Shown here: positions 13,189 through 22,589 of the stretch, piece by piece | How the letters are laid out: every line of letters begins with the position of its first letter | Position numbering within the stretch: the stretch's first letter is position 1 | Origin: Escherichia coli 042 | GTDB taxonomy: Bacteria > Pseudomonadota > Gammaproteobacteria > Enterobacterales > Enterobacteriaceae | NCBI RefSeq assembly: GCF_000027125.1 | Contig: NC_017626.1 | Reading direction: 5' to 3' (one strand) | DNA: 64,000 nt | Made by a program: the position numbers and the translations under genes | The notes under the pieces: model-generated | Databases searched by the model: none | What the model was told of the DNA's origin: nothing | Seen by the model: the letters and a program-made list of their open reading frames with translations, nothing else

Positions 13189-14259
13189 TTATTTGATTTC
13201 AATTTTGTCCCACTCCCTGCCTCTGTCATCACGATACTGTGATGCCATGGTGTCCGACTTATGCCCGAGAAGATGTTGAGCAAACTTATCGCTTATCTGC
13301 TTCTCATAGAGTCTTGCAGACAAACTGCGCAACTCGTGAAATGTAGGCGGATCCCCTTCGAAGGAAAGACCTGATGCTTTTCGTGCGCGCATAAAATACC
13401 TTGATACTGTGCCGGATGAAAGCGGTTCACGACGAGTAGATGCAATTATGGTTTCTCCGCCAAGAATCTCTTTGCATTTATCAAGTGTTTCCTTCATTGA
13501 TATCCCGAGAGCATCAACATGCAATGTTGTAGGGATGGCAATTTTTACACCTGTTTTGCTTTGCTCGACATAAAGATATCCATCTACGATATCAGACCAC
13601 TTCATTTCGCATAAATCACCAACTCGCTGCCCGGTAACAACAGCCAGTTCCATTGCAAGTCTGAGCCAACATGGTGATGATTCTGCTGCTTGATAAATTT
13701 TCAGGTATTCGTCAGCCGTAAGTCTTGATCTCCTTACCTCTGATTTTGCTGCGCGAGTGGCAGCGACCGGGTTTGTTGTTATATGGCCTTCAGCTATTGC
13801 CTCTCGGAATGCATCGCTTAGTGTTGATCTGATTAACTTGGCTGACGCCGCCTTGCCCTCGTCTATGTATCCATTGAGCATTGCCGCAATTTCTTTTGTG
13901 GTGATGTTTTCAAGTGGAGCATCAGGCAGACCCCTCCTTATTGCTTTAATTTTGCTCATGTAATTTATGAGTGTCTTCTGCTTGATTCCTCTGTTGGCGA
14001 GGATTTTTTCGTAGCGATCAAGCCATGAATGTAACGTAACAGAATTATCACTGTTGATTCTCGCTGTCAGAGGCTTGTGTTTGTGTCCTGAAAATAACTC
14101 AATGTTGGCCTGTATAGCTTCAGTGATTGCTATCCTCCTGTCTCGGCCTAATCCAAACTCTTTACCCGTCCTTGGGTCCCTGTAGCAGTAATATCCATTG
14201 TTTCTTATATAAAGGTTAGGGGGTAAATCCCGGCGCTCATGACTTCGCCTTCTTCCCAT
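13189..14259 (-). CDS. int: Lambda integrase (tyrosine recombinase)
   Basis: 356 aa, MGRRRSHERRDLPPNLYIRNNGYYCYRDPRTGKEF..., essentially identical to recalled lambda Int. Confidence 0.97.
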   Translation of the reverse strand: MGRRRSHERRDLPPNLYIRNNGYYCYRDPRTGKEFGLGRDRRIAITEAIQANIELFSGHKHKPLTARINSDNSVTLHSWLDRYEKILANRGIKQKTLINYMSKIKAIRRGLPDAPLENITTKEIAAMLNGYIDEGKAASAKLIRSTLSDAFREAIAEGHITTNPVAATRAAKSEVRRSRLTADEYLKIYQAAESSPCWLRLAMELAVVTGQRVGDLCEMKWSDIVDGYLYVEQSKTGVKIAIPTTLHVDALGISMKETLDKCKEILGGETIIASTRREPLSSGTVSRYFMRARKASGLSFEGDPPTFHELRSLSARLYEKQISDKFAQHLLGHKSDTMASQYRDDRGREWDKIEIK

Positions 14260-15988: not shown

Positions 15989-16180
15989 CTATTTCACTTT
16001 AATCTCAATATTTCGCAGCTTTAGCTCTACTGGCAGGTCTGACTTTCCTGTTAATGCTAATGCGAGATTTTCAGGAGTAATGAGAGCAGTTATTGTTTTT
16101 CCCCTCGCCAGACGAATAATCATTCGTATCTCGCAATCGTCACATGCTCCCGGTCGAACAATTGAGATTTGTCCGTTCAT
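15989..16180 (-). CDS. Hypothetical small phage protein
   Basis: 63-aa ORF packed between neighbours in the same operon. Confidence 0.35.
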   Translation of the reverse strand: MNGQISIVRPGACDDCEIRMIIRLARGKTITALITPENLALALTGKSDLPVELKLRNIEIKVK

Positions 16181-16181
16181 C

Positions 16182-16808
16182 TCACTTCCCCTTCACACCA
16201 ATGTTGGCGGCGGCGCGCTCGGCTTCACTTTGTTCCCAAAACCACTTGTGAAGCGCCATAAGCTTTTCGTCAATCGGTGCATATTTGCGATTAAAGTAGG
16301 CCTGAGCATCTTTCTCAGATTCGTCCGGTAATTCGCCTGGGCCAAACAGTGTGTTATAAATCCATGCCAGTCCGCTTTTAGCGTCGCCAGTCGATTGCCA
16401 TTCGATAATGGCAGCCTGCATGACCAGAATGTTTTTCCCGATTAACAGGTCCAGTTCTTTGTACCGGTTGCGGATGTATGCATTCTCGCTTTGTAATTTT
16501 GCGTTGCGCTTCTCTGCGGCTTCCAGATCAACTCTCAGCTTCCCTACCGTTAGCGCAATATCCTCGTTCTCCTGGTCGCGGCGTTTGATGTATTGCTGGT
16601 TTCTTTCCCGTTCATCCAGTAGTGCCAGCACGGTTTCTGGTCCGGTCAGAAATTTGAAGGCGTTGAGCGCATCAATATCCACACCGTAATCCTTAAGTTC
16701 CTGTTCACTTAACAAATCATCATCAACTGGCAACATTAACAGGCGTTCCATTGCCGGAATTGCACGTTCTGCCGCCAGTCGCAGAGCCTGATAGTTAATC
16801 TCGCTCAC
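16182..16808 (-). CDS. Ead/Ea22-like early protein
   Basis: 208 aa, coiled-coil rich, position after xis; resembles Ea22-family proteins of lambdoid phages (from memory). Confidence 0.45.
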
Positions 16809-16988
16809 TGGTTGCCTCCTTTGCGCAACATCGCATTCAGATATTTGTTTTGATTCACTGATGGAAAAGAATTTCTCTTAAGCAATTCCTCTCTCGATGG
16901 CATTGGCTTTACGCGTTGGCGAATAATCATTTCTGCCGGAAGAATGCCGGGATTGTATGCAAGTCCTCTCATGGTAAATTCCTCTTTG

Positions 16989-17303
16989 TTAATTTATTCG
17001 TATGCCTGCTCTTTCTTCATCGAGTTTTTTTAGCTTGTATCGCATAGCTCTTACTGAATAAATTGAGCGGCAGGTTGCAATTGCTATTTCTTCTGCGGAG
17101 AACTTACCGAAAAGTGATACTTCGGCTCTTGTCCATCGTCTTCCACGAAGTCGGCTAACAATGTCAGCGCCAATCCTTGTTGCTTTCGCCATTACTGCTT
17201 TTTCAGTCCTTTCCAGTTTTTCAGCGATAACTTCAACTGGCATTGTCGCCGCCACTTCGCGCAAGAAATCGACTTCCCATTTCTCCCATGGAGTCTTTTT
17301 CAT
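16989..17303 (-). CDS. Hypothetical phage protein
   Basis: 104-aa ORF in early-left operon. Confidence 0.4.
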
Positions 17304-17314
17304 AGGCGATACCG

Positions 17315-17803
17315 TTATTTGATAAGAAGTGAAGGTTTCCCAACTTTGAGTTGAGCGCCGGGGATATTTATTCCTGCTTTTAGTTGGTGTTTGATTGCTA
17401 GTTTGTCGGCTTTAATTGTCGTTTCAAACTCAACGTATTCTTGAGGAAGGGCGCTTGAGTCGATGATTTCTACAGTTTCTGACGGTTTGCGGATTGTTAC
17501 CTGGTGAATACCTGCTCGAATCTTTTTCTTGCCAACCATTTCAAGCGATGACGCTATATATGATTTGATGCTGTCAATCTTATTTTGAATTACTGCGGCT
17601 CGCTCATTTAGTGACTTTGCCTCTTCCTTGAGGCGTTCAGCATAACCAGATTCATTTTTAATAATGGCGAGAAGTTGCTCTATTTTATCGGTAAATTCTC
17701 CTTCCATGCCTTCTATTGTGTCAGCAATCATCTCTGGCTCTAAATCTGAATCCATCAATTTTGCGTATTCATTGGCTATTTCATATAGTTTGCTCACTGG
17801 CAA
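17315..17803 (-). CDS. Gp157-like protein (RecT-associated family)
   Basis: 162 aa immediately downstream of recT; acidic coiled-coil protein of the type often adjacent to RecT/Erf. Confidence 0.4.
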   Translation of the reverse strand: MPVSKLYEIANEYAKLMDSDLEPEMIADTIEGMEGEFTDKIEQLLAIIKNESGYAERLKEEAKSLNERAAVIQNKIDSIKSYIASSLEMVGKKKIRAGIHQVTIRKPSETVEIIDSSALPQEYVEFETTIKADKLAIKHQLKAGINIPGAQLKVGKPSLLIK

Positions 17804-18692
17804 CCTCCAGTTTCGCTTTGCATTCTATGTAAATGGCTTGTACGTTCTGCTGCAATTTCATTCCAGATGTCAGGCGATATGCTTCTGCAAAATATCGCTT
17901 CAAATCATCCATGTTTTCTGCCTGAGCCATTTCATCGCAAAGAAGTTGTACTTTATCCATTATTTCCTGCTGGCGTTTCCGTTCATCTTCGCGGATATCT
18001 TCCTCTGATTTGTGCGGCATAACTGGTTCAGTCCACACACCTTCTTCTTCGTTTAGTACGTGAATAGCACTATCAAGACGTGATGCCTTAGGCCAATACT
18101 TGCTTGCACGCTTTACGACCGTCTTTCGCGCCATCTCATTCCAGTGATTTACCCATGGTCCTTTATCGCTGAATGCTGCCTTGCTTGTTTTCCTTACAGC
18201 CTCAATTTCAGCCAGACTCATCTCTTCCGTTAGATAATCACCTGCTGGCGTCTTAACTGTGCAGTAAACGCCAACGATATCACCACGATCACCGAAGGCG
18301 TTGTATTTATGGGTTGGTGCTTTATCAAGCCCGTTTGACTCATAGGTATCGTTAGCATGAACAAGTTTTGCCTGACCCCATGAGATAACACCAGACTCCA
18401 TTGCAATATGGAGCAATCCCATATAACTGATATCAAGGCAAACCATGCCGTCGCGCGGAACTAGATAAGCAAGTTTGCTGGCCGGGTTTAAGGTGATGCC
18501 GATCGCCGCAACATTGATGATGGCGTTCTGTGCGCTGGTTGGATTTGCCAGTGCCGTTTTAGCCAGGTAATCATTTTTCTGGAAATACTGAATTGCAAAC
18601 TGGCTTTCCTTAGCCCATGTCACCGTCTGTTCAGTCAATGCTCCGCAGAATAACTGCTCCTGCTGTTTAACGAATTCAACGATATTGCTCAT
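17781..18692 (-). CDS. recT: RecT-family single-strand annealing recombinase
   Basis: 303 aa with the recalled RecT pattern GPWVNHWNEMARKTVVKRASKYWP. Confidence 0.8.
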   Translation of the reverse strand: MSNIVEFVKQQEQLFCGALTEQTVTWAKESQFAIQYFQKNDYLAKTALANPTSAQNAIINVAAIGITLNPASKLAYLVPRDGMVCLDISYMGLLHIAMESGVISWGQAKLVHANDTYESNGLDKAPTHKYNAFGDRGDIVGVYCTVKTPAGDYLTEEMSLAEIEAVRKTSKAAFSDKGPWVNHWNEMARKTVVKRASKYWPKASRLDSAIHVLNEEEGVWTEPVMPHKSEEDIREDERKRQQEIMDKVQLLCDEMAQAENMDDLKRYFAEAYRLTSGMKLQQNVQAIYIECKAKLEVASEQTI

Positions 18693-19000
18693 GCAGCTTC
18701 TCCATAAATATGTCTGCGTTTGAATATTGCGAAGGCATATTCAGCCTTAACTCTTTCGGTTATTGCATCCCAGAACCATTCAGCGGCTTTTTCCTGATAG
18801 TTACAGTCATCATCTTCCAGCCAGTCGATAGCGTCCTTAGTGTGTTCATCTGGTTTATATGAGCGAAGCATTTCGCTTATTGGGTCGCAACGTTTGCAGA
18901 GGCGATCAACTTCACTGTTGATTCGTTCGTAATCTTCATCAGTAAAACTTGCGATTATTTGCGATATTTCACGCTTATCATTCAGAGTCAGAATCATCAT
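18689..19000 (-). CDS. Hypothetical early protein
   Basis: 103-aa ORF overlapping recT start codon. Confidence 0.4.
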   Translation of the reverse strand: MMILTLNDKREISQIIASFTDEDYERINSEVDRLCKRCDPISEMLRSYKPDEHTKDAIDWLEDDDCNYQEKAAEWFWDAITERVKAEYAFAIFKRRHIYGEAA

Positions 19001-19547
19001 CTTTCTCCTGTTCTTTGTGCTGATTGAGCATTTCTTTCATCTGACGAATGAATTCTTCGTCTGACCAGTTATCTGTAAAACTCATTTCCTGCGATACCAC
19101 GGAAGGTTGATCGCTGATTTCATCGCTTTATTTGCTTCAAGCCACATTTTTGAATCACCAATAAATCTGGCTATTACTGCTTTGTTCTGTGCAGCACGAA
19201 GCATCTGGTGATTGATGGCTATTTCATTGCGCATAACGCCTCCAGTTGTTTCTTTGCTGCTCTGATTAATTGTTTAACTCGGCGTGATAATTCAGATTCG
19301 TGCGGGTAGAAAGCGGACATGACGCCGCTACCCGCGAGCTGAAAGTGCATCATGGGTAACTCCTTATATTTGATTGCATAACGAAAACGCCTCGAATGAA
19401 GCGTTATTGGTATGCATATAAAAAGGCCCTCACACTGGAGGGCAAAGAAGATTTCCAATAATCAGAACAAGTCGGCTCCTGTTTAGTTACGAGCGACATT
19501 GCTCCGTGTATTCACTCGTTGGAATGAATACACAGTGCTTATTCGTA

Positions 19548-20018
19548 CTAATAAAATACCCAATTTTCTGTTTCTTGGTTGTGTCCAAAGTTATATTCAA
19601 TATCTGGTGTTGATGTATCAATATTCTTCATCCCATCAACAAGAGTTGATACAACAGCCAAATCTTGTTCTATTCTCATTAAATGGTATTTCTTCCGGCG
19701 CAATAAACTTTCAATAGCAAGTTTCTTCGTTGGGAATGCAAAAGATCTTTCTGCATTTTTTGCTACTTTCTTAATTGCATATCTATTTCTCCTTTGTTTC
19801 CATTCCTGTAACCACTGATTTGGTGCTGGTTTAAAATTAACAATCCAATGCGCAGGAACCAACCATGCATAATGCTCTGTCTGATGAAAAGCTATATATT
19901 GAAGTGCGAATATTTTTATCCCATCTTCTTCAACTGTCGCCTGGAATCTCCAGAAAACAGGCATTCCATCATGTTCAGTTTCTGATTCAGGAAAAGGTAC
20001 GCTCCATGATTTTGTCAT
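19548..20018 (-). CDS. Hypothetical protein, low-GC accessory gene upstream of N
   Basis: 156-aa ORF in AT-rich DNA; no recognised family. Confidence 0.5.
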   Translation of the reverse strand: MTKSWSVPFPESETEHDGMPVFWRFQATVEEDGIKIFALQYIAFHQTEHYAWLVPAHWIVNFKPAPNQWLQEWKQRRNRYAIKKVAKNAERSFAFPTKKLAIESLLRRKKYHLMRIEQDLAVVSTLVDGMKNIDTSTPDIEYNFGHNQETENWVFY

Positions 20019-20026
20019 ATCTCACC

Positions 20027-20353
20027 TCAAATAAGTGGTTTGCTGCCTAATTTCATTTTCTGTCGACCAACACAAGTCACACCAATTTCACTGCGTGGCT
20101 TGCTGTACCATGTGCGCTGATTCTTGCGCTCAATACGTTGCAGGTTGCTTTCAATCTGTTCGTGGTATTCAGCCAGCACCGTAAGGTCTATCGGATTCAG
20201 TGCGCTTTCTACTCGTGATTTCGGTTTGCGATTCAGCGAGAGAATAGGGCGGTTAACTGGCTTTGCGCTTACCCCAACCAACAGGGGATTTGCTGCTTTC
20301 CATTGAGCCTGTTTCTCTGCGCGACGTTCGCGGCGGCGTGTTTGTGCATCCAT
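20027..20353 (-). CDS. N: Antitermination protein N
   Basis: Track ORF trimmed to MDAQTRRRERRAEKQAQWKAANPLLVGVSAKPVNRPILSL..., matches recalled lambda N; 108 aa. Confidence 0.92.
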   Translation of the reverse strand: MDAQTRRRERRAEKQAQWKAANPLLVGVSAKPVNRPILSLNRKPKSRVESALNPIDLTVLAEYHEQIESNLQRIERKNQRTWYSKPRSEIGVTCVGRQKMKLGSKPLI

Positions 20354-20463
20354 CTGGATTCTCCTGTCAGTTAGCTTTGAGTAACGCGCCGTGATGCTTA
20401 TCTCCACGGTTGCTGTCTTGCAGCTGCATTTCGCGCTACTCAAAGCTTTCTGCTTTGAATGCT

Positions 20464-20494
20464 GCCCTTCTTCAGGGCTTAATTTTTAAGAGCG
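20464..20494 (-). promoter_or_regulatory. nutL (boxA + boxB)
   Basis: Minus-strand CGCTCTTA (boxA) and GCCCTGAAGAAGGGC (boxB hairpin) between pL and N. Confidence 0.85.
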
Positions 20495-20538
20495 TCACCT
20501 TCATGGTGGTCAGTGCGTCCTGCTGATGGCTTAAAATT

Positions 20539-20606
20539 ACAAGGAAGATTGTATGTTGTAAACAAGAAATATTGTAAAAAAGAGCGTGAAAAACAAATTC
20601 CATTGT
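20539..20606 (-). promoter_or_regulatory. OL operators / pL region, phage 434 type
   Basis: Three 14-bp sites ACAAGGAAGATTGT (20539-20552), ACAAGAAATATTGT (20562-20575), ACAAATTCCATTGT (20593-20606). Confidence 0.75.
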
Positions 20607-20656
20607 TTTTAAACGGAAAATAGTTTGTTTTTTGGTTGTCGAAATCGAGGTGAGGA

Positions 20657-22009
<1,353 letters not shown>

Positions 22010-22017
22010 GACATTCC

Positions 22018-22049
22018 CGCTCTTACACATCCCAGCCCTGAAAAAGGGC
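22018..22049 (+). promoter_or_regulatory. nutR (boxA + boxB)
   Basis: CGCTCTTA then GCCCTGAAAAAGGGC hairpin downstream of cro. Confidence 0.85.
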
Positions 22050-22128
22050 ATCAAATTAAACCACACCTATGGTGTATGCATTTATTTGCATACATTCAAT
22101 CAATTGTTATCTAAGGAAATACTTACAT

Positions 22129-22407
22129 ATGCAACTTACAAGTACTCGCAAGAAAGCGAATGCAATTACAAGCAACATCCTAAATCGAATTGCTGTACGT
22201 GGTCAGCGAAAGGTGGCCGACGCGTTAGGGATTAATGAATCGCAAATTTCACGATGGAAAGACAGCTTCATCCCAAAAATGGGAATGCTTCTGGCTGTTC
22301 TTGAATGGGGTGTTGAAGACGAGGAGTTGGCGGAACTGGCTAAGAAAGTAGCCAGAATGCTGACAAAAGAAAAAGCCCCGAAGAACGGCGAATTCTTCGA
22401 GGCCTGA
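22129..22407 (+). CDS. cII: cII transcriptional activator
   Basis: Trimmed to internal Met; ...QISRWK...PKMGMLLAVLEWGVEDEELAELAKKVARMLT parallels recalled lambda cII. Confidence 0.85.
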   Translation: MQLTSTRKKANAITSNILNRIAVRGQRKVADALGINESQISRWKDSFIPKMGMLLAVLEWGVEDEELAELAKKVARMLTKEKAPKNGEFFEA

Positions 22408-22589
22408 TGTAGAAAGACTGGATCAATCCACAGGAGTAATTATGACAAAACGTCGTAAGAAATACCAGGAAAAAGAAGAGATTCGACACCCTGATTCACC
22501 TGAGGGATTAGTGGTAGCCGCAGCAAATAACAGGGCGTTCGCAGAGCGCCTTGTTGGTGTTTACAGACTAGCCAAAGCAGGAGTGAAAC

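Follow-up and report, generated by a model that had tools for sequence, protein, structure and literature searches.

Three overlapping small genes, cIII, kil and an ORF without RefSeq annotation, in the pL operon of a lambdoid prophage of Escherichia coli 042

We find that the minus strand between positions 18978 and 19458 of the window (the whole 64,000-nucleotide stretch of E. coli 042 contig NC_017626.1 that was analysed) carries three small genes, each overlapping the next, from the early-left (pL) operon of a lambdoid prophage. These are a cIII gene of the HK022 class encoding 44 residues (19219-19353, minus strand), a kil gene encoding 50 residues (19082-19234, minus strand) and a 35-residue open reading frame that we call ORF3 (18978-19085, minus strand). 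The locus as a whole is very probably a cIII-kil-small ORF segment within the N-antiterminated pL operon of a mosaic lambdoid prophage, with coupled translation of the three genes. The literature has contained a cIII and a Kil of exactly this sequence since 1989, and how the lambda counterparts work is understood. The finding is thus real but mostly ordinary, with ORF3 as a modest gain in annotation.

A preliminary description of this DNA had proposed a stack of overlapping minus-strand mini-ORFs in the kil/cIII position and quoted two peptides from it. Both are present as written, one of 35 residues at 18978-19085 and one of 50 residues at 19082-19234, and the proposed position was well chosen: the quoted 50-residue frame is Kil and a 44-residue frame in the interval is cIII, each identical to the corresponding HK022 and HK97 protein. 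The suggestion that the quoted peptides are Kil-like or cIII-like holds for the 50-residue frame but not for the other (MSFTDNW..., our ORF3), which is neither Kil nor cIII and is instead a conserved gene occupying the place that arf has in P22. The comparison with the Kil and cIII families that had been recommended gives 72.6 bits against PF06301 and 104.7 bits against PF08134. The presence of open reading frames alone is within chance expectation here, as 69 ORFs of at least 20 residues overlap the 3.5-kb stretch. The three mini-ORFs stand above chance because of their homology and conservation and, where the preliminary description had allowed that no frame might be conserved, all three are.

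The surrounding genes define the operon. Upstream of the mini-ORFs lies a lambda-type N antiterminator gene (20027-20350, minus strand; PF11438, 92 bits), whose product we take to match the lambda N sequence, and beyond it, at 20464-20478, the palindrome GCCCTTCTTCAGGGC, presumably the complement of the lambda nutL boxB (GCCCTGAAGAAGGGC). Because N and the nutL boxB are both upstream, we place the mini-ORFs within an N-antiterminated pL operon. The gene between N and the cIII leader, previously noted as a low-GC gene, encodes a 156-residue homolog of HK97 gp45 (19548-20018, minus strand; phrog_1636, E 1e-111; named from the HK97 annotation). Downstream of the mini-ORFs are a 103-residue ORF (18689-19000, minus strand; phrog_3486, no Pfam match) and the gene for a RecT-family single-strand annealing protein (17781-18692, minus strand; PF03837, 112 bits), the first gene of the recombination module. 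Successive genes overlap throughout this series, by 16 nt for cIII/kil, 4 nt (ATGA) for kil/ORF3, 23 nt for ORF3 and the 103-residue ORF, and 4 nt for the 103-residue ORF and recT. A Pfam scan also identifies Gp157 after RecT (17315-17803), an integrase (13189-14259), Ea22-like and DUF551 proteins among the neighbors, and an S24/HTH repressor (21058-21690); cII lies at 22069-22407 on the plus strand (PF05269, 142.9 bits). No NCBIfam model matches any of the five proteins searched. The prophage is highly mosaic. In megablast searches no complete E. coli genome covers at least 80% of the 12-kb stretch around the locus, so that the prophage has no single annotated twin among complete E. coli records, and some part of the 1.1-kb core is matched in 2,264 of 5,426 genomes.

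Several features of these flanks merit separate mention. The 103-residue ORF is translationally coupled to recT and always accompanies the same RecT type (in loci L090, L091 and L094). In the recombination module RecT is followed by Gp157, and no exonuclease partner for RecT is apparent there. A 158-residue ORF (20657-21133, minus strand) with a hydrophobic N-terminal segment and no Pfam match is located between the S24 repressor gene and pL/nutL. Since this is the position of rexAB in lambda, the ORF may be a moron expressed in the lysogen.

The 44-residue cIII product, MMHFQLAGSGVMSAFYPHESELSRRVKQLIRAAKKQLEALCAMK (MMHFQLAGSG...CAMK), matches the Pfam 'cIII protein family' PF08134 over residues 2-38 (E 2e-30, against a cut-off of 25 bits) and also phrog_550. 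It is 100% identical over its 44 residues to HK022 cIII (CAA34220, from X16093) and to HK97 gp44. Record X16093 is the 1989 sequence of the HK022 immunity region (Oberto et al. 1989) and annotates a cIII of 44 residues and a kil of 50. Two classes of cIII gene have been described, lambda-type and HK022-type, with identical sequences in HK022, HK97 and H-19B (Kobiler et al. 2007, PMC1838920). The earlier remark that none of the frames matches lambda cIII is correct as a pairwise statement, BLASTP giving no alignment between the two proteins and the lambda-type model PF02061 (Lambda_CIII) scoring 12.4 bits, below its cut-off of 25.7 (E 0.17), but it was misleading, the frame being a cIII of the HK022 class. 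The gene is placed as expected within the pL operon, immediately upstream of kil, which it overlaps, with cII encoded in the same prophage, and a Shine-Dalgarno sequence, AAGGAG, is found 6 nt before its ATG. Lambda cIII has been shown to inhibit FtsH competitively by means of an amphipathic helix and to protect CII (Kobiler et al. 2007, PMC1838920). Going by the identity to HK022 cIII and the analogy to lambda cIII, we infer that the protein, translated from its own strong Shine-Dalgarno sequence, would competitively inhibit the host protease FtsH through an amphipathic helix; this would stabilize the CII of the prophage and favor lysogeny. The translation-initiation region of cIII does not fold into significant structure (z only -1.9), and for this reason we make no claim of lambda-like alternative mRNA structures.

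The 5' limit of cIII needs some consideration, as the right-hand end given in the preliminary description, 19458, is the TTG start of a 79-residue frame of which cIII is the 3' part, beginning at the ATG at 19353. The frame is indeed open upstream as far as 19458, and the record of phage Kapi1 annotates a cIII of 61 residues, so that the true protein could in principle be one of these longer forms. We consider this extremely improbable. The extension would run across a terminator-like hairpin at 19426-19443 (minus strand; GCCCTC-CAGTGT-GAGGGC and then a T-run), which lies some 73 nt upstream of cIII and corresponds to the annotated 'putative terminator' of HK97. The Pfam cIII model begins at residue 2 of the 44-residue form, whose ATG has the strong AAGGAG 6 nt ahead of it, and the HK022 and HK97 records both annotate 44 residues. 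In the diverged operon L094 an in-frame stop is present two codons upstream of the cIII ATG, and a terminator-like hairpin of different sequence occupies the same relative position, about 78 nt upstream of the gene. The 79- and 61-residue frames were rejected on account of the terminator hairpin within the extension and the L094 in-frame stop. Because of that hairpin and that stop, 19354-19458 is not coding; it is a 5' leader containing a terminator hairpin. Taken in full, the leader that separates cIII from the gp45-like gene (19354-19547) is much more strongly folded than its shuffled versions (z -4.85) and contains, besides the terminator-like hairpin with its U-run, a perfect 12-bp hairpin, GUGUAUUCAUUC-CAAC-GAGUGAAUACAC. 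A search of Rfam over 16000-23000 at E values up to 1 returned no RNA family, and hence no known sRNA or riboswitch lies behind the structured leader.

The assignment of the second gene as kil is straightforward. RefSeq labels the 50-residue ORF, MRNEIAINHQ...WYRRK, as kil, the protein is matched by PF06301 'Lambda_Kil' (cut-off 27.6 bits) and over its full length by phrog_2055 (E 1.2e-35), and it is 100% identical to HK022 Kil, HK97 gp43 and Sf6 gene 31. BLASTP aligns it to lambda Kil with 17 of 30 residues identical (57% over a 30-residue core, E 3e-9), and the alignment includes the FIGD-centered helix-turn-helix core (IA-FIGD-KM; ..IA-FIGD-KM..EA..) that is essential in lambda Kil (Naha et al. 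2025, PMC11762379). The same study reports an RSK/RSSK C-terminal motif in almost every homolog of lambda Kil; the C-terminus here (...PWYRRK) is basic but is not RSK/RSSK. A Shine-Dalgarno sequence, GGAGG, is present 5 nt before the ATG. Lambda Kil blocks FtsZ (PMC3961180, PMC11762379), preventing Z-ring assembly in a ZipA-dependent manner (Haeusser et al. 2014, PMC3961180). Extrapolating from these homologs, the prophage Kil, which has its own Shine-Dalgarno sequence, would be expected to block assembly of the FtsZ ring and so to cause filamentation after induction.

The third gene, ORF3, encodes MSFTDNWSDEEFIRQMKEMLNQHKEQEKDDDSDSE (MSFTDNW...DSDSE), of 35 residues from its ATG or 40 residues from an upstream GTG; the 40-residue in-frame extension was used as the query in searches for homologs. 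ORF3 is not annotated by RefSeq in E. coli genomes. It is annotated in phage Kapi1, where Kapi1_014 differs from it at 2 of 35 residues. The PHROG families matched by ORF3 are phrog_17766 (E 7.5e-16) and, along the first 21 residues, phrog_2123, the latter including HK97 gp42.1 and Sf6 gene 30, whereas Pfam searches with ORF3 and 16 relatives yield only noise (GPI2, E 0.17-0.19). Exhaustive profile searching among 1.84 billion representative proteins recovers 28 representatives of the ORF3 family at 50% identity. IMG/VR contains 522 confirmed loci with ORF3 relatives, and one cluster of relatives is found on at least 1,000 contigs. The family is small overall, yet frequent in enterobacterial prophages. 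All of its members have the motif M-S-[FI]-[TA]-D-[NT]-W-[ST]-[DE]-[ED]-x-F-[IV]-R-x-M, which is followed by tails that are variously short and acidic, long and of a Salmonella type, or of the HK97 type, many of them frameshifted. AlphaFold2 models ORF3 as a single helix over residues 9-31 with a disordered acidic tail (mean pLDDT 70.5). We did not run a fold search since a single helix makes such a search meaningless.

Two further observations concern the HK97-type members. In-frame 21-nt tandem duplications, in which EFIRQMK is repeated two to three times, are present in P0097, P0099, P0103, P0105, P0113, P0114 and P0118. In addition, gp42.1 and gp42 form one fused frame in HK97 (L002, 2116-2367) and two overlapping genes in different frames in Sf6 (L006, 1350-1599).

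The ORF3 start overlaps the kil stop codon (ATGA) and has no usable Shine-Dalgarno sequence. In homologs the start and the preceding stop overlap as ATGA or GTGA, whether the gene before them is kil, a P22-type c3 or an unrelated 54-residue gene, and no Shine-Dalgarno sequence was found at any start of the family in any of the contexts compared. On this basis we propose that ORF3 is translated by reinitiation coupled to the upstream gene. On the downstream side, ORF3 homologs precede genes for three types of recombinase, RecT, Erf and AAA_24. The L095 locus (183-1313) provides the example of the last type: a 53-residue family member, whose GTG start overlaps the stop of a P22-type c3, is directly followed by a gene for an AAA_24 (Sak4-like) protein, and the small ORF is thus tied to a third, unrelated recombinase type.

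DNA identity to HK97, HK022 and H-19B ends exactly after codon 18 of ORF3 (at about 19031/19032), which places a mosaic joint inside the ORF3 coding sequence. The joint links the cIII/kil block to the RecT module, with the conserved N-terminal codons as the shared homology. This location raises the question of whether ORF3 encodes a functional protein at all, or whether its approximately 18 conserved codons are a linker or joint for module swaps, or a bridge that passes ribosomes on from kil. Several observations fit the latter ideas. Besides the exact position of the joint, the C-terminal tails of the family are wholly different between module types and often frameshifted, the lack of a Shine-Dalgarno sequence extends to every context, RefSeq does not call the ORF, and among close relatives amino-acid changes equal or outnumber silent ones, the comparison with L091 giving no synonymous and five non-synonymous differences. 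So few sites vary among the 80 closest IMG/VR loci that dN/dS is uninformative there, and because these close relatives are too similar to decide the matter a diverged operon had to be used, for which we took L094 (gene order cIII-kil-ORF3-orf102-orf70-recT). Between the prophage and L094, ORF3 has a pS of 0.77 and a pN of 0.31, compared with 0.74 and 0.25 for kil, 0.76 and 0.32 for recT, and 0.91 and 0.34 for the 103-residue ORF. In this comparison purifying selection acts just as strongly on the ORF3 frame as on kil and recT. Over the first 26 ungapped codons the two ORF3 sequences differ 7, 3 and 15 times at codon positions 1, 2 and 3, respectively, and the other two reading frames across ORF3 show no synonymous excess against L094 and contain stops. 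Among six diverged ORF3 sequences the corresponding numbers of variable columns are 11, 4 and 16 of 19. In diverged ORF3 DNA, then, most changes fall at third codon positions and the pattern of the peptide is kept, a bias that a pure DNA recombination site would not yield. The replacements seen in the family are S/T, D/E and I/V exchanges, with W7, F12, R14 and M16 invariant, and the acidic tail is retained in the 46%-identical L094 homolog despite a different sequence. A role as a ribosome bridge is difficult to generalize, as about 100 nt separate the ORF3 stop from erf in L007 and downstream coupling is consequently not a general property. We regard it as quite unlikely that ORF3 is only a joint or a bridge, and conclude from the substitution pattern that it appears to be a translated gene under purifying selection.

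As for the role of such a protein, the closest guide is phage P22. There the arf gene, encoding 47 residues, fills the slot between kil and erf, and its product is described in the account of Poteete et al. 1991 given in PMC12315714 as aiding Erf-dependent recombination by an unknown mechanism. ORF3 occupies the equivalent slot, between kil or c3 and an annealase gene, in the prophage and in L007, L090, L091, L094 and L095. Arf, like ORF3, is small (47 versus 35 residues) and acidic, and the start of arf likewise overlaps kil, again with no Shine-Dalgarno sequence. The N-termini, MQHEFSDEEFIALIS in Arf and MSFTDNWSDEEFIRQMK in ORF3, share a [F/W]SDEEFI motif with an acidic stretch after it (BLASTP, 6/10 identities, E 0.008). 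ORF3 also gives an E value of 0.045 with phrog_2445 (Arf), and one public record names an ORF3 homolog 'accessory recombination function protein'. These similarities would be explained if ORF3 were a true ortholog of P22 Arf that stimulates the phage annealase in the same way, but this is doubtful. PF17585 (Arf), which 42 of 42 Arf homologs carry, matches neither ORF3 nor any of 17 family members at E values up to 10. In hhalign comparisons of the ORF3 family with Arf the P values are 0.0014 and 0.00084, but no more than 17-21 columns align and the probability is just 17-24%. The core that is invariant in Arf (VEQQINLAAERQN...WDEFAGYYS; VEQQINLAAERQN ... G..YYS) is absent from ORF3 and its family, the conserved C-terminal two-thirds of Arf being missing, and the profile search of 1.84 billion representatives that started from the ORF3 family reached no Arf and found no bridge between the two families. 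Furthermore, ORF3 family genes have recT, erf or AAA_24 (Sak4-like) genes as neighbors and not only erf, and the molecular function of Arf itself is unknown (PMC12315714). On present sequence evidence ORF3 resembles Arf in its position, its size and charge, and a single short motif, with membership of the Arf family not established. A broader possibility, which we raise tentatively and hold to be somewhat improbable as formulated, is that the ORF3 family is a widespread and mostly unannotated group of accessory proteins whose helix and acidic tail serve whichever annealing protein is encoded downstream (RecT, Erf or Sak4-like AAA_24), as a distant, generalized counterpart of Arf that might act, for example, through a common host partner and not through the annealase itself.

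Taking the genes together, the pL transcript would pass the terminator located ~73 nt upstream of cIII and continue as a single mRNA, from which the three small proteins could be made as a chain of coupled translation. Within this chain, ribosomes that terminate kil at the ATGA overlap would reinitiate on ORF3 and make what is probably a real protein, in which a conserved N-terminal helix (W-S-D-E-E-F-I-R-x-M) precedes a disordered, acidic tail. ORF3 is located at the junction with the recombination module, where P22 has arf, and we speculate that it most likely serves this phage module as a small accessory factor in the way Arf does.

Current annotation captures this segment imperfectly. RefSeq PGAP labels the HK022-class cIII 'hypothetical protein' and omits ORF3 (NZ_CP091020.1, our L001, positions 1848-1982 and 2116-2223), and the Kapi1 record (L003, 1417-1602) gives cIII an over-extended 61-residue start. 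If ORF3 is an Arf-like helper of recombinases, it would open a way into the study of Arf, an accessory function known for 35 years that still lacks a mechanism, and might bear on RecT-based recombineering systems.

The 44-residue cIII is the same protein as that of HK022, HK97 and H-19B (PF08134), with no difference at the protein level, and these phages also have it in the same slot of the pL operon overlapping kil, with a terminator upstream and cII in the same prophage. Lambda cIII (PF02061) belongs to a separate sequence class, and gene 32 of Sf6 is a natural chimera that joins a lambda-like center to the HK022-like C-terminus LCAMK. Lambda Kil shares with the prophage Kil its FIGD-centered core and the same overlap architecture with cIII, but has an N-terminus shorter by 7 residues and a tail containing RSSK where the prophage protein has YRRK; moreover, kil is followed by gam in lambda and by ORF3 in the prophage. 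As for ORF3 itself, its first 18-28 residues recur in HK97 gp42.1, Sf6 gene 30 and Kapi1_014 (PHROG 2123 / 17766), whose starts likewise overlap the kil stop (ATGA). Beyond this shared part, the proteins of HK97 and Sf6 have another, longer tail (LIGNEGD...) and are associated with an Erf module, whereas the ORF3 of the prophage has a short acidic tail and is tied to the 103-residue ORF and RecT.
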